DNA from: an uncultured Acidimicrobiia bacterium
GTDB lineage: Bacteria > Actinomycetota > Acidimicrobiia > Acidimicrobiales > JACDCH01
Direction: 5' to 3'
DNA length: 64,000 nucleotides
Assembly: GCA_963802415.1 (NCBI GenBank)
Contig: CAWDIH010000001.1
Span: 2,633,000 to 2,696,999 of the forward strand
This document shows, piece after piece, positions 4,380 to 58,001 of the stretch; position 1 is the first letter of the stretch; the number at the start of each line of letters is the position of its first letter. The position numbers and the translations under genes are program-made. Under the pieces are notes generated by a model. The model did no database searches. It was not told the DNA's origin and saw only the letters and a list, made by a program, of their open reading frames with translations.

Positions 4380-5217
4380 ATGTCGCTGCTGACTGCCGGC
4401 GAGGCAGTCGTGTTGGGGTTGGTGGAGGGGGTCACCGAGTTCCTCCCGATCAGCTCGACGGGGCACCTGCTCGTCGCGTCGCGCATCATGGGTCTGCCTG
4501 ACTCCGGTTCCGCAGGCGACGCGCTGAAGAGCTACGAGATCGCGATCCAGTTCGGCGCCATCCTCGCGGTGCTCATGCTGTACAGGCAGACGCGTCGGCG
4601 TGATGGTCGAAGGATTGCGAGGGCGGAGCGAGCAGGGCCGGCAGCTGCTCGCGGCCGTCGCGATCGCGTTCGTGCCGGCGGCGATCGTCGGCGTGGTGTC
4701 CGAGAGGCTGATCAAAGACGTGCTGTTCGGCGTCGGGCCGGTGGTTGTCGCGTGGATCGTTGGCGGCGTCGCCGTCCTCGAGCTGAGTCGTCGTGGTCTC
4801 GTCGGTCCTCGGGGTGGTCGTGGACTCGTCGAGATCACAACGCGGGACGCGGTGGTGATCGGCGCCGCGCAGGTGCTCGCGTTGTGGCCGGGGACGAGCC
4901 GCAGCCTCGTCACCATCGTCGCCGCGCTCCTGCTCGGGATGTCGATGGAGGCCGCGGTCGAGTTCAGCTTCCTCCTCGGGTTCGTGACGCTCGGCGCGGC
5001 CACGGTCTACGAGACGGCCAAGGACGGAAAGCTGATGATCGACACGTTCGGCATCGCCATCCCGCTGCTCGGCCTCGTGGTTGCGTTCGCGGCGGCGGCC
5101 GTCTCGATCAAGTGGATGGTCGGCTACCTGCGCCGCCACGACCTCGCCATCTTCGGTTGGTACCGCCTCGGGGTCGCCGCCCTGGCGATCACGTTGGTGG
5201 CCACAGGAACGATCTGA
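4380..5217 (+). pseudogene. uppP: undecaprenyl-diphosphate phosphatase (UppP/BacA), interrupted by one frameshift near 4590
   Basis: The N-terminus ([30 protein letters not shown]...[13 protein letters not shown]) is in the frame of ORF 4266..5543. The rest (VMVEGLRGR...PGTSRS...YLRRHDL) is in ORF 4600..5217. Removing one base near 4590 restores a full-length UppP. Confidence 0.8.
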
Positions 5218-6038: not shown

Positions 6039-7231
6039 GACGATCGGATCACCTCGAGCAGCGTGTCCATCGAGGCAAGCGAGTGACCGCTGACCATGTG
6101 ATCGACGTAGGGGAGTGCGGCTGCCATTCCCGCGACCAGGGGTTCGTAGCGGGGACTCGCCGTACGCGGGTTGACCCAGATGACGCGGCGGGCGAGTCGG
6201 GACAGGCGCGCCATCTGCGTGGCCACGACATCGGGATCATCGCGTTCCCAACCGTCGGAGACGATGACGACGACGGCGCCCCGGGCGATTCCACGACGGC
6301 CGTAGCGGTCGTTGAACGCGGCCAGCGTTGCACCGATGCGCGTGCCGCCGGACCAGTCTGTTGTCGCAGCTGCGGCTCGTTGCAGTGCGAGGTCCGGATT
6401 GGTGATCGCGAGATCGCGGGTGAGGCGGGTCAGGCGTGTCGCGAACACGAAGGCCTCGGCCTTGGTGGCCCGCACTGCTCCATGGAGGAGATGGAGGTAC
6501 GTGCGCGTGTAGGGCTCCATCGATCCGGAGACATCGGCGATGAGCACGAGTCGTCGTGGACGGCGTTTGTGGCGTCGCAGAACCTGCTCGACCGGATCGC
6601 CGCCGGTGCGGTGCGAGCGCCTCAGCGTTGCTCTCACGTCGAGACGTTCACCAGGGTGGCGGCGAACGTGCCGGCGGCTCGAGCGCTGGGGCGGATCCAA
6701 CCGAATGGCGGCGATGAGGGATCGCAGCAAGGCCATCTCTTCCGGGGTCCACGCGGCGAAGTCCTTCTTCCGTAGCCGCTCCTCCGGGCTGGCTGCCGCG
6801 ACCAGCATCGGCTCGTCGTCCTCGTCGATCGCGGTGCCCTCGGCGGGTCCCGGCATGCCCGGCGAAGGCTGCGGGCCTCGCCCGGTGTCGCGGTCCGAGC
6901 TGCGCGGCCGGTGATCGCTCCCAGGCCGGGCGTGGGGCGGGGGCGGCTGGCTGCTGTCACCGCGATGATCGGCGACGTCCGTGATCCCTTCGACGACTTG
7001 CGCGAAGACCGCGTCGAAGACCGGAAGGTGGGCGTACTCGGACACCAATGTCACTCGCGCGACCCAGTAGAGCTCGTCCACGGTCGCGGGCGACGCGTCG
7101 AGCAGCGATCGCGCGAACCTTCCTGTGCGCTCCGGTGTCGCAGGCAACCCGGCGCGATGGAGCAGTTCGCTGAACGCGGCGGTCACACTCGCGACGTCGA
7201 CCGCTTGGAGCGTTCCGGGACCGGCGGTCAT
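6035..7231 (-). CDS. coxE: VWA domain protein, CoxE-like CO-dehydrogenase maturation factor
   Basis: ATG 7231 (MTAGPGTLQ...) overlaps the upstream stop (ATGA). C-terminal VWA/MIDAS region LVLIADVSGSM. Sits in a cox cluster directly after a MoxR ATPase. Confidence 0.8.
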   Translation of the reverse strand: MTAGPGTLQAVDVASVTAAFSELLHRAGLPATPERTGRFARSLLDASPATVDELYWVARVTLVSEYAHLPVFDAVFAQVVEGITDVADHRGDSSQPPPPHARPGSDHRPRSSDRDTGRGPQPSPGMPGPAEGTAIDEDDEPMLVAAASPEERLRKKDFAAWTPEEMALLRSLIAAIRLDPPQRSSRRHVRRHPGERLDVRATLRRSHRTGGDPVEQVLRRHKRRPRRLVLIADVSGSMEPYTRTYLHLLHGAVRATKAEAFVFATRLTRLTRDLAITNPDLALQRAAAATTDWSGGTRIGATLAAFNDRYGRRGIARGAVVVIVSDGWERDDPDVVATQMARLSRLARRVIWVNPRTASPRYEPLVAGMAAALPYVDHMVSGHSLASMDTLLEVIRSS

Positions 7232-8115
7232 TCGCCGACGACCCAGGCGACGCCGCGCTCGTGCACGACGTCGAGGTCCTCGCGGTACTTCAGCACGGAG
7301 CCGAGCGTCTGTGTCGCGACCTCCGCGTCGAGCCGCTCGACGCCGAGCAGCTCGATGATCGACACCCAGTTGATCGCCTCTGCGATACCGGGCGGCTTCT
7401 GCACGTCGAGTGTCCGCAGGCGCGCCACCGCGGCGGCGGCTTGTTCGGCGATCGAAGTCGACGCGGCGGGAACTCGACGACGGATGATCTCGACCGTACG
7501 CGGAAGCGACGGATAGTCGATCCAGTGGTACAGGCAACGGCGCTTGAGCGCGTCGTGGAGATCGCGTGTGCGGTTCGATGTCAGTACGACGATCGGTGGC
7601 TGCTCGGCGCGCAATGTCCCGAGCTCCGGGATGGTGACTGCCGCCTCAGCGAGCAATTCGAACAGGAACGCCTCGAACTCGTCGTCGCTGCGGTCGATCT
7701 CGTCGATCAGGAGCACTACTGGCCGGGGACCGCGGTGCTCGACGGCACGCAGCAACGGGCGTTCGACGAGATAGTCGCGCCCGAACAACTCGTGTTCGCT
7801 GACGTCCCGCCCCGAGGCTTCGGCGACCCTGATCGCGAGCAGCTGCCGCGGGTAGTTCCACTCGTACAGCGCTTCGGACGCGTCGATGCCCTCGTAGCAC
7901 TGCAAACGGATCAACGGCGTGCCGAGGGCGCCGGCTAGCGCCTTCGCCGCCTCCGTCTTGCCGACGCCGGGCTCGCCCTCGAGGAGGATCGCCTGCGGCA
8001 ACCGGACCGCGCAGAACAGCGCGGTGGCCAGCCCGAGATCAGCGAGATAGTCGACCTCGTCCAACCGGCCGCGCAACGTGTCGACTTCGGGGACGAGGCT
8101 CTCGAGATCACTCAC
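7228..8115 (-). CDS. coxD: MoxR-family AAA+ ATPase, CoxD-like
   Basis: Walker A GEPGVGKT, Walker B VVLLIDEIDR, MoxR-type length (295 aa) and cox-cluster context. Confidence 0.85.
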   Translation of the reverse strand: MSDLESLVPEVDTLRGRLDEVDYLADLGLATALFCAVRLPQAILLEGEPGVGKTEAAKALAGALGTPLIRLQCYEGIDASEALYEWNYPRQLLAIRVAEASGRDVSEHELFGRDYLVERPLLRAVEHRGPRPVVLLIDEIDRSDDEFEAFLFELLAEAAVTIPELGTLRAEQPPIVVLTSNRTRDLHDALKRRCLYHWIDYPSLPRTVEIIRRRVPAASTSIAEQAAAAVARLRTLDVQKPPGIAEAINWVSIIELLGVERLDAEVATQTLGSVLKYREDLDVVHERGVAWVVGE

Positions 8116-13024: not shown

Positions 13025-13999
13025 ATGCTCTCGGCCTATCGTCCAAGCGTGACGCTGACCCAACTGGAGGCGTTCGTGCTGGTGGCCCGCCTCGGTTCGG
13101 TGAAGGCGGCGGCCAACGTCCTCGGCGTGAGTGAGCCCGCGGTGTCCGGTGCGTTGTCGACGTTGCGGCAGCACCTCGGGGACCAGTTGATCGTGCGGTC
13201 TCCGACGGGGATGGAGCTCACTGCCGGCGGCAAGCGGCTCGTGGGGATCGCCTCGGAGATGGTGAACCTGGCGGTCGGCGCCGAGGCCGCGATCCGGGAC
13301 GCGCAAGGCGCACCGGAGCTGCTGCGTCTGGTGGCGACGAGCACGATCGCAGAGTTCGTTGCGCCGGCCATCATCACCGCGTTCACGGCACGCACGGGAG
13401 CGGTCGAGGCATCTGTCGGTGCGACGACGGCCGCGGAGATGCCCGCGCTGCTGTCCGAACGGCTGGCGGACGTGGGGCTCGGCCCGCGTCTGAGTGGCCT
13501 GCGCAGTGAGCCCATGATGCGATACCGGCTCGTCGTGGTGGCGAGCCCGAAGCATCCGTTGGCGACAGGCGCACCCTCGACGGCGCGCCAGGTCGCGGGT
13601 CACGAGTGGCTCGTTGGCGCGTCCGGCGCTGATCCGTCGAGCGCCGCGGGCCAGTTGCTCCTCCGCCTCGGTGTGCCGGCGTCGCGTCTTCGCGTCTTTC
13701 CGAGTGAAGCGGCGGCGTGGGCGGCTGCGTCCGACGGTCACGGATTGGCGACGGCCGTGGCGCACATCGTGCAGCGCGAGGTCGATCGCGGTGCGCTCGT
13801 CGTCCTGCCGGTCGACGGAACGCCCGTGGACCTGCTCTGGTACGTGAGCATGCTCTCCGCGGATCGATGCTCGCCGGCCGCGACCAAGCTGCGCCGTTTC
13901 CTCGGCACGCCCGACGCGATGCAGGTCATGCACCGTTCTGACGGCAGCGTCCCCGCATCACGGTTCCGCCCCCCCGTGTACGTCACGCTGTGGAGCTGA
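13025..13999 (+). CDS. LysR-family transcriptional regulator
   Basis: ATG 13025 in ORF 12686..13999. N-terminal wHTH TLTQLEAFVLVARLGSVKAAANVLGVSEPAVSGALSTLRQHLG plus a LysR substrate domain. Divergent from coxM. Confidence 0.85.
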   Translation: MLSAYRPSVTLTQLEAFVLVARLGSVKAAANVLGVSEPAVSGALSTLRQHLGDQLIVRSPTGMELTAGGKRLVGIASEMVNLAVGAEAAIRDAQGAPELLRLVATSTIAEFVAPAIITAFTARTGAVEASVGATTAAEMPALLSERLADVGLGPRLSGLRSEPMMRYRLVVVASPKHPLATGAPSTARQVAGHEWLVGASGADPSSAAGQLLLRLGVPASRLRVFPSEAAAWAAASDGHGLATAVAHIVQREVDRGALVVLPVDGTPVDLLWYVSMLSADRCSPAATKLRRFLGTPDAMQVMHRSDGSVPASRFRPPVYVTLWS

Positions 14000-14028
14000 C
14001 CTCGAATGTTGGCGACCCGATGTTCGAA

Positions 14029-14850
14029 TCAGGGGCCGGCTTGTTCGAGGGCGCGGCGGACCAGGACTCGGGCGAGGTGCCGGCGGTACTCGGGGGTGGC
14101 GTTGAGATCGGACGGGGGATCGGTCCCTTGGTCCGCCACCGCGGCCGCGTCCTCGATCGACGCGCCCGAACCCAACGCGTCCTCCACCGCCGCGCCCCGT
14201 AGTGGAGTCGAGCCGAGGTTGACGAGGCCGATGCCGGTGTTGCCGTTCCGGACGCAGGCAACACCGACAATCGCCCAGTCCTGCGCGCGCCGGTTGAACT
14301 TCTGGAACGACCAGCCCGCGCCCGACACCTTCGGCACGCGTATCTCCGTCAGCAGTTCGTCGGCTTCGAGAGCCGTCTCGAGGAATCCGGAGAAGAAGTC
14401 GTCGACCCCGATCTCGCGCGTGCCATTCGGTCCTTGCGCGACCAGCGTGGCGCGAAGCGCGATCAGCACGGCGGGCAGATCCGACGCAGGGTCGCCGTGG
14501 GCGATCGATCCGCCGATCGTGCCGCGGTGCCGCACTTGCGGATCGCCGACCTGCCCGGCCGCGTGACGCAACAGCGGCGTCTCCGAGCCGAGGAGATCGG
14601 AGTGCTCGAGGTCGTGATGCCGAGTGAGCGCACCGATGGCGACGTGGTCGCCGCCGTCGCGTACATACGACAGGTCGCGCAACCGGCCGACATCGATCAG
14701 AACCGAGGGAGTGGCCAGCCGCAGCTTCATCAGCGGCAGCAGCGAATGACCACCGGCGAGCAGCTTGGCGTCGTCGCCGTGCTCCCGCAGCAACTGCACG
14801 GCGTGATCGGGTGATTCGGCTCGCACGTAGTCGAAGGTGGCAGGGATCAT
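14029..14850 (-). CDS. FAD-binding medium subunit of a form II CODH-like molybdenum hydroxylase
   Basis: [13 protein letters not shown]...LLAGGHSLLPLMKLRL...RHRGTIGGS...TPEYRRHLARVLVRRAL. The ATG overlaps the large-subunit stop (ATGA). Confidence 0.85.
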   Translation of the reverse strand: MIPATFDYVRAESPDHAVQLLREHGDDAKLLAGGHSLLPLMKLRLATPSVLIDVGRLRDLSYVRDGGDHVAIGALTRHHDLEHSDLLGSETPLLRHAAGQVGDPQVRHRGTIGGSIAHGDPASDLPAVLIALRATLVAQGPNGTREIGVDDFFSGFLETALEADELLTEIRVPKVSGAGWSFQKFNRRAQDWAIVGVACVRNGNTGIGLVNLGSTPLRGAAVEDALGSGASIEDAAAVADQGTDPPSDLNATPEYRRHLARVLVRRALEQAGP

Positions 14851-37856: not shown

Positions 37857-37908
37857 CGAATTCCGGGGAGAAACGGGCGCCATAGCGCCCGTTTCCATCC
37901 AACATTCG
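37857..37908 (-). repeat. 52-nt hairpin repeat, copy A (sense on minus strand)
   Basis: Reverse complement reads CGAATGTTGGATGGAAACGGGCGCTATGGCGCCCGTTTCTCCCCGGAATTCG. Starts 2 nt after the IdeR-like stop and lies 23 nt before the MFS start. Confidence 0.85.
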
Positions 37909-37910
37909 AG

Positions 37911-38579
37911 TCAGGCGATGCGTTGGACGAAGACTTGCTGGGCGACGGTGCGGCCGAGCGTGCGGTCCTTGCCGTCGACGCGCAACACCAGCGGGCCGTC
38001 GAAGGGGTGCTTCTCCCGCACTTCGACGCGTCCACCGGGGCGAAGGCCGAGGGTGTCCAGAAAGGCGACGACGTCCGGGTCGGTCGAGCCCGGCACCGCC
38101 ACGACGGCCACGTCCCCCGGCTCGAGGTCGTACAGCGGAGGCATGTCGGGCAGGTCGTCCGTTTCCGGCGTAGGGATGGGGAACCCGTGCGGGCACGTGC
38201 TCGGGCGGTCGAGGGCGATGAAGATCCTGTCCTCGACCTCCTGGGGCAACTCGTGCTCGAACGACGTGGCGAGCCGGTCGGCCTCGTTCCACGCGTAGCC
38301 GAGCATGTCCGACAGGAACCGCTCGACGATCCGGTGGCGGCGGATGGCGCCGACAGCCTCACGCCGACCTCGCTTCGTGAGCTCGACGCCTTTGTACAAG
38401 CGGTGCTCGACCAGCCCACGGTCGGCGAGGCGCTTCACCGTCGTGGTGACGGTGGAGGGGCTGACGTCGAGGCGCTCGGCGAGGTCGCCGGTGTGGGCCG
38501 CCTCGTCGCCCTTCGTGAGGCGGTAGACGGCCTTCAGCGTCTCCCGTTCGGACTTCGTGAGCCTCAGGTCGTCGTCCAT
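37911..38579 (-). CDS. DtxR/IdeR/MntR-family metal-dependent transcriptional repressor with C-terminal SH3-like (FeoA) domain
   Basis: wHTH TGDLAERLDVSPSTVTTTVKRLADRGLV, dimerisation/metal region RRHRIVERFL...EHELP, FeoA-like tail. ATG 38579 is preferred over the TTG 38618 of the ORF track, which would make an AT-rich patch coding. Confidence 0.85.
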   Translation of the reverse strand: MDDDLRLTKSERETLKAVYRLTKGDEAAHTGDLAERLDVSPSTVTTTVKRLADRGLVEHRLYKGVELTKRGRREAVGAIRRHRIVERFLSDMLGYAWNEADRLATSFEHELPQEVEDRIFIALDRPSTCPHGFPIPTPETDDLPDMPPLYDLEPGDVAVVAVPGSTDPDVVAFLDTLGLRPGGRVEVREKHPFDGPLVLRVDGKDRTLGRTVAQQVFVQRIA

Positions 38580-43374: not shown

Positions 43375-43725
43375 ATGACCCAGACATTGACCGTGCGGGT
43401 GACGCGAGCCAGCGGAGTGGTGGTGGTCGACCTGGCCGGCGAGCTGGACGCCGGGACGGCCGCGCCGGTGGTGGACGCGGTGGACGCGGCTGCACTCTTC
43501 GGCCCGGACGTCGTTGTCGTCGACACGTCCGCGTTGACCTTTGTCGACTCCGGCGGTCGGCGCGCGCTCGATCAGGCATGCCGCCGGGCAGACGCAGTGT
43601 TCGTCCCGGGCCGCGCCATCGAGCGCTTCGACCGCCTGCTCGCCCGCGCCCTGCGAACTCCGGGTCGCCGTGGCTGCGATAGCAGCCACGGCGCACCAAC
43701 ATTGGTCGCGACTACTGGGCGGTGA
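43375..43725 (+). CDS. STAS-domain protein (anti-sigma-factor antagonist-like)
   Basis: 116 aa. VVVVDLAGELD...VVVDTSALTFVDSGG is the typical SpoIIAA/STAS core. Confidence 0.7.
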   Translation: MTQTLTVRVTRASGVVVVDLAGELDAGTAAPVVDAVDAAALFGPDVVVVDTSALTFVDSGGRRALDQACRRADAVFVPGRAIERFDRLLARALRTPGRRGCDSSHGAPTLVATTGR

Positions 43726-45976
43726 TCGCGTCCTGGGCTTCGGCTTCCGGGTCGACGAATGGATCGCCTGACACGTCGATCTCGACGCGATCGATGTCAC
43801 CCGAGAACTCGAACCGGCCTCGGTAGTCAGTGTCGGCTGCGGAGAAGTCCGTCGCCCATCCCACTGTCAAGCCGGCGTTGGTCAGTGACAGCCGGCTCCA
43901 AAGTGTGCGCTTGATCTGTCCCTCGCCGATCACGGTTCCGTCGACGAGCAACGACACATCGGGCGGGGCGAAGTGCACCGCGAACGTGTGCGGTCCCGAC
44001 TCGAGCGACGCCGGCAACGGTGCGTCCACGCGGTACACGCGCCATCCCGCAAGGTTGTGGACGAAGCACAGGTTGCCGTCGACGGCGTGAAAGGACCAGC
44101 CGCCGAGCACCGAGCCCTGCGACACGAGGACGCCGCGCACGGGCGAGTCGTCGAGGCGAACGTGAGCCGTGACGGTGTGCGGGCGATTGCGGATGTTGAC
44201 CGCGACGCTCTCGGGCACCGGCGCACGGCCCGGCCAGTACACGTAACGCTGTCGCGCCGCGACCGACGATTGCCGCTCGAGCACGAACGCGGAGAACGGA
44301 CGGTTGTCGAGTGGCAGGACACCGTTCGCCTCCGCTTCGACCCACCAGCGGTCGATCATCGCCGCGAGACGCTCGGTGTGGTCCCCGGCGAGGTCGTGAC
44401 ATTCGGACGGGTCCGCGCGCAGGTCGTAGAGCTCCCACGGCGCGCGGTCGAGCCCGGGCTCGTCGAACTGGATGTCGTGGTACACGACCGCCTTCCACCC
44501 GTTCTGGTACAGGGCGCGGCACCCGAACATCTCGGAATACTGCACGGTGTGTCGCTCCGCGGCATCGGGCGCGTCGAACGTGTACGCGAAGCTGACACCG
44601 GCGAGCGGCCTCTGCTCGACACCGTCGACGACCTCAGGGAAGTCGACACCCGCGAGCTCGAGGACCGTCGGGACGATGTCGACCGCATGCACGTACTGAC
44701 CCCGCACCTCGCCCCGAGCCGCGATGCCGGCCGGCCAGTGGACGATCAACGGGTCGGCCACGCCGCCCTCGTGCGTCTCGCGCTTCCAGCGGCGGAACGG
44801 TGTGTTGCCGGCCACCGTCCATCCCCATGGGTAGTTGTTGTGCAGCCGTGGGCCGCCGATGTCGTCGACGCGGTCGAGCGCTTCTTCGACCGTTCTCGGC
44901 AGCGCGTTCCATGCGCGTCCGTCGTTGACTGAGCCGGTCGGACCTCCCTCCGACGACGCGCCGTTGTCGGACAGCACGATCACCACCGTGTTGTCGAGCT
45001 CGCTCAGCTCGTCCAGCCGGTCGAGGACGCGGCCGACCTGCGCGTCGGCATGCGACAAGAATCCGGCAAACGCTTCCATGTACCGCGCATAGACACGCTG
45101 CGCGTCGCCGTCGAGGTCGTCCCACCCTGGCACCCACTCGGGACGGGGCGACAGCTCGGTGTGGTCGGGGAGCAGTCCGCTCGCCTTCTGGCGGCGCAGC
45201 GCTGCGTCGCGCCAGACGTCCCACCCTTGATCGAACCGCCCGCGGTAATGAGCGATCCACTCGGACGGCGACTGGTGCGGTGAATGGCACGCGCCGGTCG
45301 CGAGATACAGCAGCCAGGGCTTGTCCACGTCGACCTGTCGAAGATCCTCGATGAACTCGATGGCGCGGCCGGCGAGGTCCTCAGTGAGGTGATAACCGTC
45401 CTCGTACGAGCCGGGCGGATCGACGAAATGGTTGTCGTAGACGAGTGACGGAACGAACTGGTGCGTCTCGCCCGCGAAGAAGCCGTACCAACGCTCGAAG
45501 CCACGCCCGAGCGGCCACCGATCACGGCGGGCGCCGAGGTGCTCCTCGTCCTCGGGCGTCAAGTGCCACTTGCCCACCGCGTACGCGGCATAACCGTGAG
45601 GCGAGAGCATGGCGGGAAGGAACGCGGACGATCGGGGGACCCGCGCGTCGTACCCCGGAAAGCCCGACGCGAGGTCGACGACCCGCCCCATGCCGCAGGC
45701 GTGATGGTTGCGACCGGTCAGCACGCACGCGCGTGTCGGGGAGCAGAGGGCAGTGGTGTGGAAGTTTGCGTAGCGCAAGCCGTTGGCTGCCAGCCGGTCG
45801 AGGTTCGGCGTGTCGATGTCGGAGCCGAAGCAACCGAGCTGCGCGTACCCCACGTCGTCGAGCACGACGAGCAAGACGTTCGGCGCGCCCGCTCGAGGTC
45901 GGGGTTCCTCCGGCCAGTACGGCTCCGAGTCCCAGTGGTAGCGGCCGATGCGGCCCCTGAACTCGCCCGGTTCCAT
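43712..45976 (-). CDS. arylsulfatase (formylglycine-dependent) with large C-terminal domain
   Basis: ATG 45976 (MEPGEFRG). LLVVLDDVGY, the sulfatase signature CSPTRACVLTGR, and SDNGAS. 754 aa. Confidence 0.85.
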   Translation of the reverse strand: MEPGEFRGRIGRYHWDSEPYWPEEPRPRAGAPNVLLVVLDDVGYAQLGCFGSDIDTPNLDRLAANGLRYANFHTTALCSPTRACVLTGRNHHACGMGRVVDLASGFPGYDARVPRSSAFLPAMLSPHGYAAYAVGKWHLTPEDEEHLGARRDRWPLGRGFERWYGFFAGETHQFVPSLVYDNHFVDPPGSYEDGYHLTEDLAGRAIEFIEDLRQVDVDKPWLLYLATGACHSPHQSPSEWIAHYRGRFDQGWDVWRDAALRRQKASGLLPDHTELSPRPEWVPGWDDLDGDAQRVYARYMEAFAGFLSHADAQVGRVLDRLDELSELDNTVVIVLSDNGASSEGGPTGSVNDGRAWNALPRTVEEALDRVDDIGGPRLHNNYPWGWTVAGNTPFRRWKRETHEGGVADPLIVHWPAGIAARGEVRGQYVHAVDIVPTVLELAGVDFPEVVDGVEQRPLAGVSFAYTFDAPDAAERHTVQYSEMFGCRALYQNGWKAVVYHDIQFDEPGLDRAPWELYDLRADPSECHDLAGDHTERLAAMIDRWWVEAEANGVLPLDNRPFSAFVLERQSSVAARQRYVYWPGRAPVPESVAVNIRNRPHTVTAHVRLDDSPVRGVLVSQGSVLGGWSFHAVDGNLCFVHNLAGWRVYRVDAPLPASLESGPHTFAVHFAPPDVSLLVDGTVIGEGQIKRTLWSRLSLTNAGLTVGWATDFSAADTDYRGRFEFSGDIDRVEIDVSGDPFVDPEAEAQDAITAQ

Positions 45977-47088
45977 CAGGGCGCCAGCCCGGTGCACGGA
46001 CGAAGAGCGTTCCAGTCGACGACAGCGGCTGCTGCTTCTGCGCCCGTGAGCGGCTGTGCGACTGAACCGCGGATCACACCCGGCAGGAACTGGTAGCCGT
46101 CCACGTGACGGCCGGTCATCGTCACCTGCACGACCCCCGTCTTCTCCGCACCGGCGCCGACGGCGGCGAAGTCGAAGTTGCCGAGTCCGTAGCCGACGAA
46201 CGTCGTGCCGAGCATGCCAGCCCCCTGCAGTCGGTGCGCGTGACCGCCGATGACGATGTCGGCGCCGGCATAGGCCAACTGGCCGGCGAGGGTGTGCTGC
46301 ACCTCGCTCGGACAGGTGTTGCGCTCGATGCCCCAGTGCAGGTAGACGACGACGATGTCCGCGTTCGCTCGGGCTCGCTGCACCGCGGCGACGAGTGCAT
46401 CCGCGTTCTTCGCTGATGCAAGGCCGGGATGGCCCGGCGCAGCTGTCCACGAGGCGACGAGCTCACCGTCGATCACCTGGGTGGCCGCGATGACCGCGAC
46501 GCGCTGGCCCTTCACGGTCGCGGTGAAAGCCCGGTAGGCGTCGACGTCGTCGTGGCCGATACCGATGATGAAACGATCCGATTGTGCGTCCTTGACAGCG
46601 AGCGACTCGATGAGGCCGTCAGGCCCATAGTCGCGCCCGTGGTTGTTCGCCATGCTCACCGTGTCGAAGCCTCCGGCCCGCAACGCGTCGACGGACGACG
46701 GTGGCGCCCGGAAGGTGAACTGCTTGTTCTCCGGCGTGCCGCCGGTGGCGATAGCGGACTCGAGATTGCCGATGGCGAGGTCCGCGGCGGACAGGATCGG
46801 CGTGAACGGACCGATGGCGGATGCCGGATCGCGCGCGAGCCGGGTCCCCATCGCGCCCTCGAAATTGATGTCGCCGGCGAAGGCGATCGTGATGGGCTGG
46901 GGCGGCGGGGTCGTCGAGGTCGTCGTCGAAATCGTGGATGGCGTCGTCGACGGCGTCGAGGCGCTGGGGGAGGCGACGGCCGGCGGTGGCCCTGCCGGTG
47001 TGTCGGACGAGGCCGAACTGCAGCCGGCGGCCAGGGCGAGTGCGGCCCACCCGAGAGCCACTGTGGCTCTCCGGTGCCCGCCTCGCAT
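45976..47088 (-). CDS. CapA-family lipoprotein (metallophosphatase fold, poly-gamma-glutamate capsule synthesis-like)
   Basis: ATG 47088. Lipobox LALAAGCSS and a Ser/Thr/Pro linker. FAGDINF, ANNH and GGHAH motifs. The stop overlaps the sulfatase ATG by 1 nt (TGATG). Confidence 0.8.
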   Translation of the reverse strand: MRGGHRRATVALGWAALALAAGCSSASSDTPAGPPPAVASPSASTPSTTPSTISTTTSTTPPPQPITIAFAGDINFEGAMGTRLARDPASAIGPFTPILSAADLAIGNLESAIATGGTPENKQFTFRAPPSSVDALRAGGFDTVSMANNHGRDYGPDGLIESLAVKDAQSDRFIIGIGHDDVDAYRAFTATVKGQRVAVIAATQVIDGELVASWTAAPGHPGLASAKNADALVAAVQRARANADIVVVYLHWGIERNTCPSEVQHTLAGQLAYAGADIVIGGHAHRLQGAGMLGTTFVGYGLGNFDFAAVGAGAEKTGVVQVTMTGRHVDGYQFLPGVIRGSVAQPLTGAEAAAAVVDWNALRPCTGLAP

Positions 47089-47201: not shown

Positions 47202-51749
<4,548 letters not shown>

Positions 51750-51759
51750 GCACCCGATG

Positions 51760-51811
51760 CGAATGTTGGATGGAAACGGGTGCCATAGCACCCGTTTCTC
51801 CCCGGAGTTCG
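51760..51811 (+). repeat. 52-nt hairpin repeat, copy B (sense on plus strand) in the gltB-gltD spacer
   Basis: CGAATGTTGGATGGAAACGGGTGCCATAGCACCCGTTTCTCCCCGGAGTTCG. Starts 10 nt after the gltB stop and ends 21 nt before the gltD ATG. Confidence 0.85.
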
Positions 51812-51832
51812 GAAGATGGGGGAGGCGCGGCG

Positions 51833-53281
51833 ATGGCTGATCCCGCCGGGTTCCTCAAGCACGGGCGGCGCACGCCGACGCGGCGGCCGGTGCCGGTGCG
51901 CATCCTCGACTGGCAGGAGGTCTACGAGGACTTCCCCGACACGGACCTGCGGGCGCAGGCGTCGCGATGCATGGACTGCGGCATCCCGTTCTGCAACAAC
52001 GGCTGCCCGCTCGGCAACCTCATTCCCGACTGGAACGACCTCGTCTGGCGTGACCACTGGCGCGACGCCATCGACCGCTTGCACGCCACGAACAACTTCC
52101 CCGAGTTCACCGGTCGGCTGTGCCCGGCGCCATGCGAAACGGCGTGCGTGCTCGGCATCAACCAGGACCCCGTGGCGATCAAGCAGGTCGAGGTGTCGAT
52201 CATCGATCACGCTTGGCAGGAAGGTTGGGTCGAGCCGGTGCTGCCGTCGGTCAAGACGGGCAAGCGCGTCGCTGTCGTCGGCTCGGGTCCCGCAGGACTC
52301 GCGGCCGCGCAGCAGTTGACCCGCGCCGGCCACGACGTCGTCGTGTACGAGCGCGCCGACCGCGTCGGCGGTCTACTGCGCTACGGCATTCCCGAGTTCA
52401 AGATGGAGAAGCGCCATCTGGACCGTCGCATCGTGCAGATGACGGCAGAGGGCACCGAGTTCCGCACGAACGCCAACATCGGCGGCAATGTGCCGGTCAG
52501 TGACCTCGACGAGTTCGACGGGGTCGTGCTCGCCGGCGGCGCGACCTTGTCGCGCGATCTGCCGATCCCGGGTCGGGAGCTGGCCGGCATCCACCAGGCG
52601 ATGGAGTACCTGCCGTGGTCCAACAAGGTGCAGGAAGGTGACCTCGCCGAGACACCGATCACCGCGGCCGGCAAGAACGTCGTCATCATCGGCGGCGGCG
52701 ACACCGGCGCCGACTGTCTCGGCACCGCAATCCGCCACGGTGCGGCGTCGATCCACCAGTTCGAGATCCTGCCCCGCCCACCCGACGAGCGACCGGATGC
52801 GAACCCGTGGCCGACGTGGCCGATGATGTTCCGCGTCTCGTCCGCACACGAAGAGGGATGCGAACGAGTCTTCTCCGTCAACACGGAATGCTTCCTCGGC
52901 GACGGCGACGGCAATGTCCGCGCCTTGCGAGCGCACGAAGTCGAGATGGTCGACGGCCGCTTCGAGAAGATCGAGGGGACGGACTTCGAGCTTCCGTGTG
53001 AGCTGGTCCTCTTGGCCATGGGCTTCGTCGGGCCGGAACGCACGGGCCTGCTGGATCAACTGGGTGTCGAGCTCAACGATCGGGGCAACGTCAGCCGCGA
53101 CGCGTCCTATGCGACGAATCTCGAGCGCGTCTTCGTGTGCGGCGACATGGGCCGCGGCCAGAGCCTCATCGTCTGGGCGATCGCCGAAGGGCGCTCGTGC
53201 GCTGCGGCCGTCGACCGGTGGCTCATGGGCGAGACGGCGCTGCCCGCGCCGATCGCGCCGGACGCCCGGCCGTTGACCTGA
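51833..53281 (+). CDS. gltD: glutamate synthase small subunit (NADPH)
   Basis: ATG 51833 preceded by GGGGGAGG. Fe-S Cys clusters CMDCGIPFCNNGCP and CPAPCETAC. GSGPAGLAAA dinucleotide fold. Confidence 0.95.
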   Translation: MADPAGFLKHGRRTPTRRPVPVRILDWQEVYEDFPDTDLRAQASRCMDCGIPFCNNGCPLGNLIPDWNDLVWRDHWRDAIDRLHATNNFPEFTGRLCPAPCETACVLGINQDPVAIKQVEVSIIDHAWQEGWVEPVLPSVKTGKRVAVVGSGPAGLAAAQQLTRAGHDVVVYERADRVGGLLRYGIPEFKMEKRHLDRRIVQMTAEGTEFRTNANIGGNVPVSDLDEFDGVVLAGGATLSRDLPIPGRELAGIHQAMEYLPWSNKVQEGDLAETPITAAGKNVVIIGGGDTGADCLGTAIRHGAASIHQFEILPRPPDERPDANPWPTWPMMFRVSSAHEEGCERVFSVNTECFLGDGDGNVRALRAHEVEMVDGRFEKIEGTDFELPCELVLLAMGFVGPERTGLLDQLGVELNDRGNVSRDASYATNLERVFVCGDMGRGQSLIVWAIAEGRSCAAAVDRWLMGETALPAPIAPDARPLT

Positions 53282-53333
53282 CCACCATCGCCACTCTGCG
53301 CGCGCACGTGCTGGAACGTGCAAGGCTGCGCCC

Positions 53334-53999
53334 GTGCGGAGGGTGTTGGTCGCGGCCGCAGTTCTGCTGCTCTGGGGAGCCGGGGCGTCGGCGATCGTGC
53401 GGAATCTGGGACCGCGAACGAACTCGAACGGGCCGCCTGTGGTGCTGTCGACAGACCGGCTGACGTCCGCCGCCGTCCGCATCGACGGACGTGGCGGGGG
53501 ACGGTTCGACATCGGGAGCGGCGTCGGCGTCGCTCCGGACGTGGTGCTCACGAACGCCCACCTGATCGATGATCCGGCAACCTTCGTCACCCAGCGTGAC
53601 GAGAGCGTGCTCTCGCCCCGCCGTGTCGCGCGGGCCCAGAACGGGCTCGATCTGGCTGTCGTCGTGACGAACGGCCCCGACGTGAGCACGGTCGCGCTCG
53701 CGCCGCAGGACCCGGAGGCCGGCGAGGAAGTGACGATGGTCGGCTATCCCTGGGGTGAGCGCACGATCACCGAGGCCCGCATCGAGGGGACGCTGGTTCG
53801 GGGCGAGTCCATGGTCCTGCGCTTCAGCCCCGAGCCGCATCCTGGGCAGTCGGGGAGCCCGCTCATCGACTCGCACGGACGGCTCGTCGGCATCGCCTTC
53901 GCACAGGACACCGTCGGCGGCCAGGGGCTCGCGATCCCGGTGTCCGACGTGCGCGCCGCCCTCGACGCCTGGCGCGCGGACGGCATCCCGGTGGGGTGA
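53334..53999 (+). CDS. secreted trypsin-like (S1C/HtrA-type core) serine protease
   Basis: Signal peptide MRRVLVAAAVLLLWGAGASA. Triad contexts TNAHL, LDLAVV and GQSGSP. Confidence 0.75.
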   Translation: MRRVLVAAAVLLLWGAGASAIVRNLGPRTNSNGPPVVLSTDRLTSAAVRIDGRGGGRFDIGSGVGVAPDVVLTNAHLIDDPATFVTQRDESVLSPRRVARAQNGLDLAVVVTNGPDVSTVALAPQDPEAGEEVTMVGYPWGERTITEARIEGTLVRGESMVLRFSPEPHPGQSGSPLIDSHGRLVGIAFAQDTVGGQGLAIPVSDVRAALDAWRADGIPVG

Positions 54000-54000
54000 G

Positions 54001-54864
54001 GTGGCCCGTTCGCCGGCCGCGTTGCCGGTCGTCATCGTGCACCGGAACCAGCCCGAACGGCTGCGCGAGACGGTTGCGGCGTTCCGGGCGCAGGACGTCC
54101 CGGTCATGATTGCCGTCGTCGACAACGCATCGACCGAACTGCCTCAGGTGGACGCGCCGGATGTCGTCGTGCTCGACGCCCGTCGCAACCTTGGGTTCGG
54201 GCCTGGCGCCAATCTCGGGTTCCGACATTTCCTCGAACGCGACGGCACGTGGGGCTGGATCGCTCTCGCGCCGCACGACGCGCTGCCGGAGCCGGGCTGC
54301 CTTCGCCGGATGCTCGACGCGCTCGCCAAGCGTCCTCGAGCCGGCCTCGCGTGCGCGGACGTCGGCGACGACGCCACACCGATCGTCGACCCGTACTTCG
54401 GCGGCATCCTCGCGCCCGCCACCGAGGCAGAAGGTTGGGAGGACGCGGGCCATCCACACGGGACGCTCATGCTCGCTCGGCGCGCATGCCTGGAGGACGT
54501 CGGACTGTTCGACGAGCGCTACTTCGCGTACTGCGAGGAGGCCGACCTCGCGCTGCGCGCCGCGGCAGGCGGATGGGAGTGCGGATTAGTGCGTGGAGCG
54601 ATGGTCCGCAACCCGTATGTCGGCTCCGCGTCGGCGGCGATCGACTACTTGCAGTTGCGCAACACGTTGTTGCTCGTGCGCGAGCACTCGGGCCGGTACC
54701 ACGCCTTCATCCGCTACGTGATCGCGTTGTGGCACCTCGCGTCAGGCGCGGTGTTCCCGTCCCGTCGCGGCCCCTACTGGAACGCGCGTGGCCGGGTCGC
54801 CGCGCTGGCCGATTTCGCCCGTGGACGTTTCGGTCCGCCGCCGCGGCGGCTCATGTCCACCTGA
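54001..54864 (+). CDS. family 2 glycosyltransferase
   Basis: GTG 54001 directly after the protease stop. VVIVHRNQPERL...AVVDNAST...GFGPGANLG...YCEEADLALR, a GT2 (rhamnosyltransferase-like) pattern. Confidence 0.7.
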   Translation: MARSPAALPVVIVHRNQPERLRETVAAFRAQDVPVMIAVVDNASTELPQVDAPDVVVLDARRNLGFGPGANLGFRHFLERDGTWGWIALAPHDALPEPGCLRRMLDALAKRPRAGLACADVGDDATPIVDPYFGGILAPATEAEGWEDAGHPHGTLMLARRACLEDVGLFDERYFAYCEEADLALRAAAGGWECGLVRGAMVRNPYVGSASAAIDYLQLRNTLLLVREHSGRYHAFIRYVIALWHLASGAVFPSRRGPYWNARGRVAALADFARGRFGPPPRRLMST

Positions 54865-54878
54865 CCGTCACCTGACCC

Positions 54879-55157
54879 TCACGTGATGTCGATGTCGCCT
54901 TCTTCTGCGGCGGCAATTCGTGGCCGGACGCTGACGAGGTAGTAACCGGAGATCAGCAGGCCACCGACGAGGGTGAGGATCCCGAAGAGGATTGCTGTTA
55001 TCCAGACGACCCGCCGGCGTCCTGCCAGAGCCCACGCCCATTCCGGCCGGTGCGCGGCGTCGAGCAGCGCCCACAGCGACAGCCCGAGCGGGACGCAGGC
55101 GAACGTCGCGGTGACGATGGCCCACGCCCAGTCGCCGGGCCCGTAACGAGCGAGCAC
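54879..55157 (-). CDS. small membrane protein, PLD-nuclease N-terminal (PLDc_N)-like
   Basis: C-terminal 92 codons of ORF 54879..55982. Two TM helices with LWALLDAAHRPEWAW...VWITAILFGILTLVGGLLISGYYL. A GTG start is assumed, and the rest of that ORF is antisense to an SDR gene. Confidence 0.45.
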   Translation of the reverse strand: MLARYGPGDWAWAIVTATFACVPLGLSLWALLDAAHRPEWAWALAGRRRVVWITAILFGILTLVGGLLISGYYLVSVRPRIAAAEEGDIDIT

Positions 55158-55181
55158 CGGGCGAGGGTACTGTCCGCCGCC

Positions 55182-55965
55182 GTGACTCCTCGTCTGTCGA
55201 CCCGCAGCCGTTCCGTCGAAGGTCGGGTCGTCATCGTGACCGGCGCGGCGAGTGGCATGGGACGTGCGACCGCACACCTCTTCGGTGACGAAGGCGCGTC
55301 GGTCGCATGTACGGACGTCACGCTCGAAGGCGCAGCCGAGGTGGCCGACGAGATCGTGGGCGCAGGCGGCAAGGCGGCGGCGTGGGCGCTCGACGTGCGC
55401 GACGACGCGCAGGTTCGCGCTGTGGTCGCTGACATCGTGGAACGGCTCGGGCCGATCGACATCCTCGTCAACAACGCGGGCATCTCGATCCCCGCGCCGA
55501 TCGACATGGACGACTTCGACGTTGCATGGGACGCGACGTTCGCGGTCAACCTGCACGGGCACACGCGGCATGGTGCGCGCCTGCCTGCCGCATCTCATGC
55601 GTAACGGCGAAGGACGCGTTGTCAACATCGCGTCGACCGAAGGGGTCGGCGCCACCGGATGGACCTCGCCGTACACCGCCTCGAAGCACGGTGTGATCGG
55701 CCTCACCAGGTCGCTCGCCGTCGAACTCGGTTCTCGCGGTGTCAACGTCAACTGCGTCTGCCCCGGTCCGATCCATACCGGCATGACCCAGGCCATCCCC
55801 GACGACGCCAAGACGAAGTTTGCGCGGCGCCGGGTGCCGCTCCGTCGGTACGGCGAGCCCGAGGAGGTGGCGCACGCGACGTTGTCACTTTCGCTGCCCG
55901 CAAGCTCGTACATCAACGGCGCCGTCCTCGTCGTCGACGGTGGGATGACGGCGAAGAACACGTAG
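55182..55965 (+). pseudogene. SDR-family oxidoreductase, one frameshift near 55565
   Basis: TGAASGMGRA and NNAG are in ORF 55050..55604. YTASKHG and the C-terminus are in ORF 55252..55965. Confidence 0.75.
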
Positions 55966-55975
55966 CGTTCCTGCA

Positions 55976-56695
55976 ATGCCACTGGCGGATGAGGACATCG
56001 AGCGCATCCTCGTCGTCACCGCCCACCCCGACGACGTCGACTTCGGTGTCGCGGGCTCGGTGGCGGTGTGGACCGACAAGGGGATAGAGGTGTCGTACTG
56101 CGTCGTCACCGACGGCGACGCGGGAGGGTTCGATCCGGCCGTGCCCCGGAGCGACATCGCGGGGATCCGTCGCGCGGAACAGACAGCGGCCGGCGAGCAG
56201 GTCGGTGTCACCGACCTCACGTTCCTCGGTCATCCCGACGGACGCCTGTACCCGACCATCGAGCTACGGCGCGACATCAGCCGCGTGATCCGGCGGGTGC
56301 GTCCGCAGCGCGTCGTGACGCAGTCGCCCGAACGCAACTTCAAGCGCATCTACGCCAGCCATCCGGACCACATGGCTGCGGGCGAAGCAGCGTTGTGCGC
56401 GGTGTATCCAGACGCCCGGAACCCGTTCGCGCATCCGGAGCTGCTCGAGGAGGGGTACGAGGCGTGGACCGTGCCGGAAGTGTGGATCATGTCGTTCGCG
56501 TCCGATGACGCGTTCACCGACATCACGTCGGCCATCGACCGCAAGGTCAAGGCCTTGCTCTGTCACGTCAGTCAGATGACCAACCCCGACGCGATGGACC
56601 AGCTGATCCGGGGTTGGGGATCGGCCGTCGCCGTCGCGGCGGGGCTTCCCGCAGACCACTACGCCGAGTCGTTCCAAGTGGTCCCCACCCCCTGA
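55976..56695 (+). CDS. PIG-L/LmbE-family deacetylase (MshB-like)
   Basis: ILVVTAHPDDVDFG zinc-site motif and HPDH. 239 aa. Confidence 0.8.
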   Translation: MPLADEDIERILVVTAHPDDVDFGVAGSVAVWTDKGIEVSYCVVTDGDAGGFDPAVPRSDIAGIRRAEQTAAGEQVGVTDLTFLGHPDGRLYPTIELRRDISRVIRRVRPQRVVTQSPERNFKRIYASHPDHMAAGEAALCAVYPDARNPFAHPELLEEGYEAWTVPEVWIMSFASDDAFTDITSAIDRKVKALLCHVSQMTNPDAMDQLIRGWGSAVAVAAGLPADHYAESFQVVPTP

Positions 56696-56709
56696 CCGTC
56701 TCCGACCTG

Positions 56710-56761
56710 CGAACTCCGGGGAGAAACGGGCGCCATAGCGCCCGTTTCCATCCAACATTCG
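56710..56761 (-). repeat. 52-nt hairpin repeat, copy C (sense on minus strand)
   Basis: Reverse complement reads CGAATGTTGGATGGAAACGGGCGCTATGGCGCCCGTTTCTCCCCGGAGTTCG. Starts 10 nt after the lipase stop, in the convergent spacer with the PIG-L gene. Confidence 0.85.
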
Positions 56762-56771
56762 TTGAACGCGG

Positions 56772-58001
56772 CTACGAGCAGGTCTGGGCCTCGACGATCG
56801 GTTGGCCGGTGGGCGGGGTCGGATCGGGGGCGGGTTCGCCGGCGAAGCGGTCGTTGATCCAATGGAGCATGTCGGGAAACGACGGAGCGATGACGCCGGC
56901 GTGCGACTGGCCGGGGTAGATCCATCGCTGCTCGACCTGGTGGATCTTGCAGAGCTGATCGAACATGAGCGCCGTCGCCGCGACGGGAATCTGCTCGTCG
57001 TTGCCGCCCTGGATGACCAGAAGTGGCTGCTTCGCCGCGACGGGGAATCTGCCCGGATCGTTGTCGTCGAGAAGCTTCGCCCACTCGGGAACGGTGTCCG
57101 GGTCGGCCTTCACGAGGTCGTCGGTCTTCAGGTTGGCGGTTGCCTTCGAGATCGCATCGGTGCACCCGTCGTCAACGGTGGGAATGGCGGCCAGGCCTGC
57201 GGGCGTCAACACCTTGTCGAGCGGCGCGGCTTGGTCACCGAAGCCAGCGTTGAACCCGGCCGCCGCCATCAGCAGGTAGTACCGGAACGGGCTCGCCTTC
57301 AGTGCCTGGTACACAAGTGACAGTTGCGAAGGCGGCGCGCCGGCCACGACGCCGACGAGATGCAGTTCCGGCGCCCACTCGTCCGCGAGATGCAGTGAGA
57401 ACATCGCGGCGTGCCCGCCTTGTGAGTGTCCCCACACCAGATAGCGATCGCTGGCGTGGACGTCGGGCAGCGCTCGGGCCGCTCGGACGATGTCGAGGGT
57501 GCCCCGTGCTTCGCTCGTTCCGGCGATGTACGGATGACGTCCGGGCGTGCCGAGCCCTTCGTAGTCGGTGGCGACGACGACGTACCCGGCGTCGAGCAGT
57601 CCGTTCGCGATCTGCACGTACTGATCCGGTTTCAAGGATGGCGCGCACGTGTCGGCGATGCCCGTGGTGCCGTGCGCCCAAGAGACGACCGGATAGCCGC
57701 CGTCCGGCGGCGGCGTGTTCGGGACCGCGATGAGGCCCGTGACCGGTATGTCCTTCCCCTGGATCGACTGCGAGTGGTACATCACCCGCTGCATCGTCCC
57801 GTGCAGCGCCGGCACCGACACGGGCTCGGTCTTGATGACGTCGCCGGGCTTCCCTTGCGGAAGTGGATCAGGGATGCCGTAGAAGGCGGGTAGGCCGGGA
57901 GGCGGCGGAGCGGTCTTCGTCGCGGCGGGCTCCGTGTCGTTGGACGAGCACGCCGCCAACACCATGACGATCGCGATCGCGTTCAGTATGCGCCAGTTCA
58001 C
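56772..58001 (-). CDS. secreted lipase/esterase lipoprotein (alpha/beta hydrolase, LIP family-like)
   Basis: Lipobox VLAACSS and nucleophile elbow GHSQGG. 409 aa. Confidence 0.75.
   Translation of the reverse strand: MNWRILNAIAIVMVLAACSSNDTEPAATKTAPPPPGLPAFYGIPDPLPQGKPGDVIKTEPVSVPALHGTMQRVMYHSQSIQGKDIPVTGLIAVPNTPPPDGGYPVVSWAHGTTGIADTCAPSLKPDQYVQIANGLLDAGYVVVATDYEGLGTPGRHPYIAGTSEARGTLDIVRAARALPDVHASDRYLVWGHSQGGHAAMFSLHLADEWAPELHLVGVVAGAPPSQLSLVYQALKASPFRYYLLMAAAGFNAGFGDQAAPLDKVLTPAGLAAIPTVDDGCTDAISKATANLKTDDLVKADPDTVPEWAKLLDDNDPGRFPVAAKQPLLVIQGGNDEQIPVAATALMFDQLCKIHQVEQRWIYPGQSHAGVIAPSFPDMLHWINDRFAGEPAPDPTPPTGQPIVEAQTCS

Follow-up and report, generated by a model that had tools for sequence, protein, structure and literature searches.

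The gltB and gltD genes of an uncultured Acidimicrobiia bacterium are separated by 83 nt, most of which is taken up by a 52-nt sequence able to fold as a hairpin. What this hairpin is, and why it lies between the two genes, was the question raised by a 64,000-nt stretch of the genome (assembly GCA_963802415.1, contig CAWDIH010000001.1, positions 2,633,000 to 2,696,999, hereafter the window). A preliminary description had reported three copies of the repeat in the window and proposed a transcribed RNA element or a unit resembling REP elements or MITEs. Sequence comparisons placed the gltB-gltD hairpin in a lineage-specific, so far undescribed superfamily of palindromic 52-nt repeats of soil Acidimicrobiia. 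Membership of the family, the distribution and biased orientation of its copies, and conservation of the hairpin, overall and at individual loci, were shown by the sequence data. On balance we favour, with some reserve, a dispersed palindrome like REP or TRIT that is co-transcribed and kept as an RNA hairpin at 3′ ends or between cistrons.

The three copies, designated type A below, were located as follows.

37857-37908, minus strand: type-A copy A, 2 nt past the stop codon of a DtxR/IdeR-type gene (37911-38579, minus strand).
51760-51811, plus strand: type-A copy B, in the gltB-gltD spacer, with the T22-A31 subfamily apex and loop CATA; 77.5 bits with covariance model R1.
56710-56761, minus strand: type-A copy C, in a convergent region, 10 nt past the stop codon of a LIP lipase gene (minus strand) and 14 nt from the stop codon of a PIG-L gene (plus strand).

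Coordinates and strands were exactly as first reported. Copies A and C differed once (position 48), and copies B and C at positions 22, 25, 28 and 31. Copies A and C have the loop TATG and copy B its reverse complement CATA, indicating that the two loop changes of copy B were a single loop flip. Distances from stop codon to element (2, 10 and 10 nt) and the layout of the gltB-gltD spacer (51750-51832, with gltD starting at the ATG at 51833) also agreed with the preliminary description. Neighbouring genes were assigned by Pfam to a DtxR/IdeR-type repressor, GltB, GltD and a LIP-family lipase. A 35-nt core pattern of the element had a chance expectation of 0.00 occurrences in shuffled sequence.

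The sense RNA was predicted to fold as (((((.((((..((((((((((((....))))))))))))..)))).))))), a 21-bp rod of -30.7 kcal/mol (z = -5.4; -29.2 kcal/mol for copy B). The antisense fold was -26.1 kcal/mol, making the sense strand ~4.6 kcal/mol more stable. The strand-asymmetric pairing noticed earlier was borne out by four G-U pairs of the sense strand (5-48, 7-46, 8-45 and 13-40), at which G-U predominated across the type-A alignment. Pair 15-38 was seen as G-C, G-U and A-U, and pair 22-31 as C-G or U-A. The reported absence of a U-tract held as well, a consensus scan of 51000-57500 giving no terminator-like site. The 3′ flanks of type-A copies were G-rich, and the sequence UUUCU stood directly 3′ of the G+C-rich inner stem.

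One genome per GTDB species was scanned with the pattern TGGAAACGGG-N10-CCCGTTTCTCC. Among the matches listed, 75 of 77 blocks were from one metagenome-assembled genome (MAG), uncultured Acidimicrobiia bacterium MFD05841.bin.1.39; the other two were a block from a sister bin and a chance match. This MAG and the window genome were relatives, with protein identities of ~80% (range 71-95%, mostly 77-90%) and a common gene order in two segments. At least 90 copies were found in the related MAG, and nhmmer gave 94 non-redundant copies in the MAG loci plus the window, nearly all of exactly 52 nt. In a second scan, of JGI metagenomes, 84 soil contigs carried the element. No copy was found in plasmids, and two matches in viral contigs were chance matches without the hairpin; carriage by phages or plasmids was rejected on these grounds. 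A search of the whole window against Rfam at gathering threshold returned tRNA only. Under permissive settings, the matches in 51700-51880 were to miRNA and snoRNA families, all by chance and far below gathering scores. A known Rfam family, which the preliminary description had not recognised either, was thereby rejected. No paper matching the hairpin family was found in the literature.

Positions 3-10, which lie outside the search pattern, were invariant in 88 MAG copies, and the four loop positions varied freely. Several loops occurred in both orientations (TATG/CATA, TCTG/CAGA, TATC/GATA and CAGG/CCTG). Subfamilies, such as those with the T22-A31 pair or the TCTG loop, were common to unlinked loci. 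The T22-A31 pair occurred in 11 of the 118 distinct sequences of alignment A1, and the apex of the copy at L029 of the related MAG was identical to that of copy B. Hairpin repeats may be mis-handled in MAG assemblies. Near-identical flanks surrounded the copies at L031 2464-2514 and L055 5336-5387 (MAG contig 4 and 29-kb contig 1), representing either a duplicated region or assembly redundancy.

The type-A repeat proved to be part of a larger group. At L066 5544-5594, a presumed empty orthologous site, an element was found with the type-A arms and loop and a different inner stem (CATTTCCGGTGC/GCGCCGGAAATG); further elements of this kind, designated type B, were found by pattern search and with covariance model R1. 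Both types consisted of a 5′ outer arm GAATGTTGG and a 3′ outer arm CC(C)GGAGTT(CG), a 2x2 internal loop, a 12-bp G+C-rich inner hairpin and a 4-nt loop. The arms (GAATGTTGG…CCGGAGTT), the internal loop and the 52-nt length were common to types A and B, and the 12-bp hairpin differed. Type A was the expanded family, with inner stem GGAAACGGGCGC; a typical type-B element kept the arms around other inner stems and read CGAATGTTGG-TG-[12-bp stem]-[4-nt loop]-[stem']-A-CCCGGAGTTCG over 52 nt, without any U run. Arm sequence was conserved in both types, with sense-strand pairing U-G, U-G, U-G and one G-A mismatch. The arms are conserved in sequence and the core in structure only. We infer that the conserved arms may be a recognition site for a protein, either a copying enzyme or an RNA-binding factor. 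Two members of the superfamily and one arms-only relic had been overlooked in the window.

4324-4375, plus strand: type-B element with type-A outer arms and 52-nt length; inner stem CGCCGTGGTCGC/GCGACCACGGCG; 65.5 bits (R1).
14003-14026, plus strand: arms-only relic of 24 nt, CGAATGTTGG-CGA-CCCGATGTTCG, without the inner hairpin; 23.2 bits, E 6e-5 (R1).
43654-43705, minus strand: type-B element, inner stem CGCCGTGGCTGC/GCAGCCACGGCG, 6 nt past the stop codon of a sulfatase gene (43712-45997, minus strand); 67.5 bits (R1).

Across the superfamily, 10 of 24 pairs were changed on both sides; the covariation score was 0.311 against 0.127 in shuffled alignments (0/500 as high), and slid-alignment controls were far lower. 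The preliminary description had held that compensatory change maintained the hairpin. This was strongly borne out across the superfamily (10 pairs) and weakly within the main family; the pair in copy B on which the claim was built was an inherited subfamily marker, not an independent change. The further step from compensatory change to an RNA element did not stand as stated, since in a DNA palindrome such change alone is insufficient evidence of RNA function. Fully symmetric variants, with a 3′ arm exactly complementary to the 5′ arm (…CCACCCAACATTCG), occurred at L066 813-864, L086 891-942, L122 2662-2713 and L016 5041-5092, and were either ancestral or the outcome of hairpin-templated correction.

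Copies were nearly all intergenic. Their placement relative to the flanking genes was as follows.

Convergent intergenic: 38 in the MAG and window, 23 in metagenome contigs, 61 in total.
Co-directional, sense: 34 in the MAG and window, 21 in metagenome contigs, 55 in total.
Co-directional, antisense: 11 in the MAG and window, 9 in metagenome contigs, 20 in total.
Divergent intergenic: 6 in the MAG and window, 1 in metagenome contigs, 7 in total.

The background of intergenic regions in the same loci was 379 co-directional, 125 convergent and 122 divergent, indicating that convergent regions were ~twofold over-represented among the copies and divergent ones strongly depleted. In several seemingly divergent cases the copy was followed, 32-57 nt on, by a tRNA gene. 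The element started at a median of 9 nt past the upstream stop codon (interquartile range 4-14). It had been described as always sense-oriented; in co-directional regions 55 copies were sense and 20 antisense (73%, binomial p 6e-5), which is a tendency only, and the 61 convergent copies were uninformative as to orientation. The five 52-nt copies in the window alternated in strand within ~52 kb, each agreeing with its upstream gene, and opposite orientations were also found inside single 8-kb loci. Orientation therefore followed the local gene, and control by the direction of replication was rejected. A recoding, read-through or SECIS-like signal was also rejected, the usage of upstream stop codons matching background (TGA 76% vs 72%) and the spacing being broad (-3 to ~26 nt for most copies). 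The GGAG tail of the element was suitably spaced for a ribosome-binding site in ~3 copies (window 4324, L124 and L155), and such a role was rejected as a general one.

Placement after genes raised the question of termination. The element might be a terminator or insulator, either a non-canonical intrinsic one using the UUUCU after the inner stem, or one whose arms are read by a factor, as proposed for TRIT, a conserved palindromic hairpin present at ~150 copies per genome in a narrow window at gene 3′ ends and only in Mycobacterium (PMC3152330). The start near the stop codon, the convergent enrichment and the divergent depletion would be expected of such an element. One copy followed a tRNA gene (window 4324), and type-A copies lay 32-57 nt upstream of same-strand tRNA genes at L021 2059-2243 (Val), L045 3721-3878 (Cys), L080 145-303 (Cys) and L085 966-1140 (Trp), positions from which they could protect the tRNA against transcription arriving from upstream. 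The strong sequence conservation points to a binding factor, the argument also made for TRIT (PMC3152330). A canonical intrinsic terminator was rejected: the hairpin was present but a U-rich tract of 7-9 nt was not, and type B had no U run at all, whereas, according to PMC3993855, mycobacterial RNA polymerase requires a U-tract at intrinsic terminators. In M. tuberculosis, predicted terminators including TRIT coincided with merely 2-4% of the 3′ ends mapped by Term-seq, making even the terminator role of TRIT doubtful. Finally, some copies lay within apparent operons near the next start codon (gltB-gltD; 4 nt before the BacA ATG), where an efficient terminator would be harmful. We consider a terminator or insulator unlikely.

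Copies between cistrons also invite comparison with the early mRNA of phage T7, in which intercistronic hairpins separate the cistrons on cleavage by a double-strand-specific RNase. By analogy, a rod of 21-24 bp with an internal loop might be an RNase III-type processing site, and a rod of ~two helical turns with a 2x2 internal loop conserved in both types would suit such an enzyme. Most copies closed a transcription unit, among them those in convergent regions, and at such places no processing is needed; we regard this explanation as improbable. Some BIMEs serve as sites for proteins at the DNA level, and the Acidimicrobiia element might likewise bind a nucleoid, gyrase, IHF-like or recombination protein as double-stranded or cruciform DNA. 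The strictly conserved arms are compatible with this, and the hypervariable, flipping loop suggests extrusion of a hairpin or cruciform; the gene-relative orientation bias and the sense-specific wobble pairing would be unexpected for a double-stranded DNA site, so that such a role seems very improbable.

Orthologous sites were compared by their flanks with the element masked. Ten intergenic regions were filled in at least two genomes, their flanking DNA being 72-99% identical, and at five or six sites only one of the two genomes had the element. At shared sites the orientation was equal and rare variants were held in common (L052 and L097, for instance, both have the GGAGAACG tail); the few nucleotides on either side of the element, the stretch back to the stop codon included, could hardly be aligned. 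Copy A had its ortholog in the related MAG at L048 1598-1649, with equal 14-nt spacing to a conserved downstream block. Identities at the shared sites were as follows.

Element stems, positions 2-24 and 29-50: 96.9%.
Stem positions outside both search patterns: 96.0% (291/303).
Adjacent codon positions 1 and 2: 90.6%.
Adjacent codon position 3: 66.1%.
Element loop: 64.7%.

Loops were no more alike between orthologs (0.647) than between random copies (0.598). Variable markers outside the loop agreed at 0.835 between orthologs against 0.745 between random pairs (p about 0.003; 17 pairs from 10 sites, not fully independent). Together with the shared rare variants, this indicated that copies were mostly inherited, with strongly constrained stems and hypermutable loops. 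Given its placement after genes, mostly in the direction of the gene, a family with such stems behaves as a conserved RNA hairpin module of 3′ ends would, and unlike plain junk DNA. Filled and empty sites were also aligned to define the ends of the element (L028/window, L090/L008, L098/L043 and L110/L054), and in these the short intergenic DNA was too diverged for junctions to be visible.

The high copy number, the sites filled in one genome and empty in another, and the presence of tandem arrays upheld the REP/MITE-like behaviour proposed earlier. Head-to-tail arrays of 2-3 units of element plus spacer were found at four MAG loci (L002, L051, L069 and L071). In 14 of ~92 copies a short tandem array (period 11-23 nt, 2-3.6 units) began in or just after the 3′ tail; 3-4 copies had one at the 5′ end. 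The 3′-tail arrays often repeated (CCCC)GGAGTTCG plus a few flanking bases; examples are L019 6454-6532, L059 1716-1776, L073 574-613, L047 2911-2963 and L022 6955-7002, among others. Direct repeats of at least 7 nt between the two flanks numbered 13 against 13.9 expected from mismatched flank pairs, and a fixed target-site duplication was rejected. No conserved target motif was visible in the flanks. No transposase was seen beside any copy in ~600 kb of the ~4.3-Mb MAG plus the 64-kb window of the 3.34-Mb contig, and no parent insertion sequence with matching termini was found in the available loci or by a plasmid match. Inverted copies enclosed a gene for PEP carboxykinase at L008 and one for an AbiEi_4/DUF559 protein at L004, so that a transposase between inverted copies was rejected; the copies flanking the L004 gene obeyed the after-the-gene rule.

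The L004 gene (6889-7929, minus strand) encoded a 346-aa protein with AbiEi_4 and DUF559 (Vsr-like endonuclease fold) domains and lay between inverted copies ~1 kb apart, at 6919-6970 (plus strand) and 7963-8000+ (minus strand). Its open reading frame (ORF) ran into one of these copies. This single case might be due to chance or might point towards a partner nuclease.

Such traces bear on a second reading, in which the element is selfish DNA: a non-autonomous hairpin of REP/RAYT or MITE type, mobilised in trans, with arms that the transposase recognises and cleaves, and no benefit to the host. Placement after genes would then mark tolerated insertion sites, and conservation would reflect recent copying and gene conversion. 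High copy number, patchy presence among close relatives, and filled and empty orthologous sites are all consistent with this, as are subfamilies spread over unlinked loci, tandem arrays and 3′-tail duplications resembling a trace of copying, switching between types A and B at orthologous sites, arms conserved in sequence around a core conserved only in structure, and an 8-bp duplication flanking the gltB-gltD insertion (below). On the other side, the stems of orthologous copies had changed less than non-synonymous sites in adjacent genes, rare variants were shared by descent, and a general target-site duplication, a visible target motif and an adjoining transposase were missing from the loci examined. 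The orientation, which tracks transcription and not replication, would be unusual for single-strand HUH transposition. Selfish DNA is thus a possible explanation, though a doubtful one.

The history of the gltB-gltD copy was reconstructed from relatives found through GltD. In the window, the junction contained the following features.

51742-51749, plus strand: left ATGGCTGA octamer, the gltB end including its stop codon, 10 nt before the element.
51818-51825, plus strand: Shine-Dalgarno (SD) sequence GGGGGAGG of gltD, 7 nt before the ATG, in spacer DNA nonexistent in relatives with overlapping genes.
51833-51840, plus strand: right ATGGCTGA octamer, the gltD start, 21 nt after the element.

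In L164 (GltD 91% identical), the P0010 contig (89%) and L166 (86%), gltB and gltD overlapped by ATGGCTGA and carried no element; L164 and L166 had a single octamer, where the gltB stop and gltD start overlap. The P0005 contig (GltD 91% identical) resembled the window in its 83-nt spacer, a comparison of length only, and L165 (GltD 89%, GCA_036257895.1) had a 74-nt spacer with a type-B element. These differences indicated that the insertion had come between two translationally coupled genes and doubled the stretch in which they overlapped, the lone clear duplication at any copy. A new SD now lies in the novel spacer. An ORF running through copy B was accounted for by the duplicated gltB end. 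Ahead of the gltD start, the window and L165 had G-rich stretches that looked homologous, in favour of a single old insertion with a later change of type, although a single-gene tree is not decisive. No element was found in the 21 kb around gltBD in either L164 or L166, indicating that the family was patchy among close relatives.

How might a co-transcribed hairpin act? The elements have reached about a hundred or more intergenic sites in each genome, and they survive almost exclusively in the short space that follows a gene, tRNA genes among them, preferentially pointing the same way as the upstream gene. In the reading favoured here, they would be co-transcribed within the 3′ untranslated region or intercistronic RNA. 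A rod of ~-30 kcal/mol lacking a U-tract would be expected to stop the polymerase inefficiently on its own; it could instead define and protect the RNA 3′ end after termination further downstream, probably Rho-dependent, or after endonucleolytic cleavage. Within operons the polymerase would pass, and the stability of the upstream and downstream RNA segments would be decoupled. REP/BIME hairpins act in this way in E. coli, and U-less 3′ stem-loops seem to in Actinobacteria. Stem-loops without U-tracts are frequent at actinobacterial transcript 3′ ends, and Actinobacteria have the highest predicted Rho dependency (PMC13613805). A 3′-hairpin role would fit these U-less stem-loops, the missing U-tract of the element and the copies close to downstream start codons.

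Several points weigh against this proposal. Transcription and the effect on RNA are what we infer from sequence. Antisense copies were no more degraded than sense copies (mean nhmmer score 63.8 vs 65.0, p = 0.42), so that greater decay of antisense copies was rejected, and with about a quarter of co-directional copies antisense a sense-restricted RNA role was not enforced. Processes at the DNA level, namely template switching and hairpin-templated repair, preserve arm complementarity in palindromic DNA; flipped loops and symmetric variants point to them, and covariation is therefore no proof of selection on RNA. Single-mismatch intermediates of the inner stem were more often C-A, a wobble pair in the antisense strand, than U-G. 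At two sites (L155/L066, and gltB-gltD in the window/L165) the genomes differed in the type of element, A against B, showing that conversion or re-insertion occurs and could inflate the apparent conservation. Both collection patterns needed an exact match to part of the element, leaving decayed copies under-sampled, and gene calls were from an in-house simple codon-bias caller trained on long ORFs of the loci (88% coding).

Among described systems, the REP/BIME hairpins of E. coli are, by analogy, the closest functional counterpart, and TRIT is the nearest described parallel. REP hairpins shield upstream mRNA from 3′ exonucleases. REP, BIME and REPIN elements resemble the Acidimicrobiia element as short, extragenic, imperfect palindromes in hundreds of copies, after genes or between cistrons, strand-asymmetric and with conserved mismatches; they are co-transcribed, as this element presumably is. 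They differ in being 20-40 nt long or REPIN doublets, whereas the Acidimicrobiia element is one 52-nt rod whose arrays are head-to-tail and not inverted doublets. The GTAG head of REP is absent from the consensus CGAATGTTGGATGGAAACGGGCGC…, and no RAYT was found in the available loci (~600 kb of the MAG plus the window). REP/RAYT systems belong to another phylum (Proteobacteria), and conserved arms with a swappable core are a design of the Acidimicrobiia element's own. TRIT has in common with it a palindromic hairpin repeated at gene termini without a canonical U-tail in one actinobacterial lineage. TRIT centres at ~-8, inside the coding sequence, and its copies are mostly bidirectional, whereas the Acidimicrobiia element has a median of +9 past the stop codon and is strand-asymmetric; TRIT is further set apart by its reported restriction to Mycobacterium, the present family being found in Acidimicrobiia. 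The U-less 3′ stem-loops of Actinobacteria are likewise stable, G+C-rich hairpins soon after the stop codon, but each is specific to its locus, whereas here one family occupies many loci.

Small non-autonomous palindromic repeats such as Correia/NEMIS (Neisseria), RUP/BOX (Streptococcus) and ERIC show a presence/absence polymorphism as found here, and bacterial MITEs are co-transcribed with their neighbours and sometimes supply or alter expression signals. The terminal inverted repeats of MITEs have a counterpart in the arms GAATGTTGG / CCGGAGTTC, which are imperfectly complementary; target-site duplication is not general in the Acidimicrobiia element, and 52 nt is very small for a MITE. Three other classes were rejected. 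Integron attC sites did not match because copies occurred on either strand, dispersed among housekeeping genes (gltBD, ideR, pckG and tRNAs) and the order of core sites was wrong, GTTGGAT standing at the sense 5′ end (vs RYYYAAC…GTTRRRY). CRISPR was discarded because most copies were solitary and the spacers within the 2-3-unit arrays were identical, indicating tandem duplication. MIRU (non-palindromic, usually tandem units of 46-101 bp in operon spacers, with small ORFs that extend over the adjoining stop and start codons) differed from a hairpin that was mostly single and often at convergent ends.

The remaining elements of the window had the following surroundings. The type-B element at 4324-4375 lay 10 nt downstream of a tRNA-Leu gene (aragorn, 4228-4313) and ended 4 nt ahead of the BacA/UppP start, its GGAG tail standing 8 nt upstream of the ATG at 4380. 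The BacA/UppP gene (4380-5217) was apparently frameshifted near 4590: the N-terminal 70 residues (Pfam BacA, 1.6e-19) were read from the ATG at 4380 and the remainder of the protein was in the frame of the ORF 4600-5217, a split due either to a sequencing or assembly error or to a pseudogene. The type-B element at 43654-43705 was traversed by a STAS-like ORF (43375-43725, plus strand) that converges with the sulfatase gene and shares 14 nt with it. The final ~20 codons of this ORF were the antisense strand of the element, the insertion of which seems to have rewritten the C-terminus of the STAS-like protein. The relic at 14003-14026 lay in a 29-nt convergent region between 13025-13999 (plus strand) and 14029-14850 (minus strand) and was possibly left over after loss of the palindromic core.

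A bolder proposal, which we hold to be unlikely, is that the G-U-rich outer helix and internal loop might be the site of a dedicated protein, and that the superfamily would be a lineage-wide cassette for factor-dependent termination or RNA processing, maintained by the host and self-copied, with a swappable core and retained recognition arms. It would in effect be a mobile module for transcript ends on which the host now relies. Acidimicrobiia are abundant in soil and almost uncultured, and how their transcripts are ended or stabilised is undescribed. If the favoured reading is true, 3′ ends and operon boundaries in MAGs could be approached directly through an easily recognised 52-nt module that marks a hundred or more gene ends in each genome, with a covariance model ready-made for annotation. 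The gltB-gltD junction is a natural experiment, setting coupled, overlapping genes beside an inserted hairpin and a newly evolved ribosome-binding site, and offers a direct view of operon rewiring by insertion. A dispersed repeat whose stem is more constrained than neighbouring coding sites, and whose loop is free, bears on the debate over whether REP-like and TRIT-like repeats are parasites or tools of the host.

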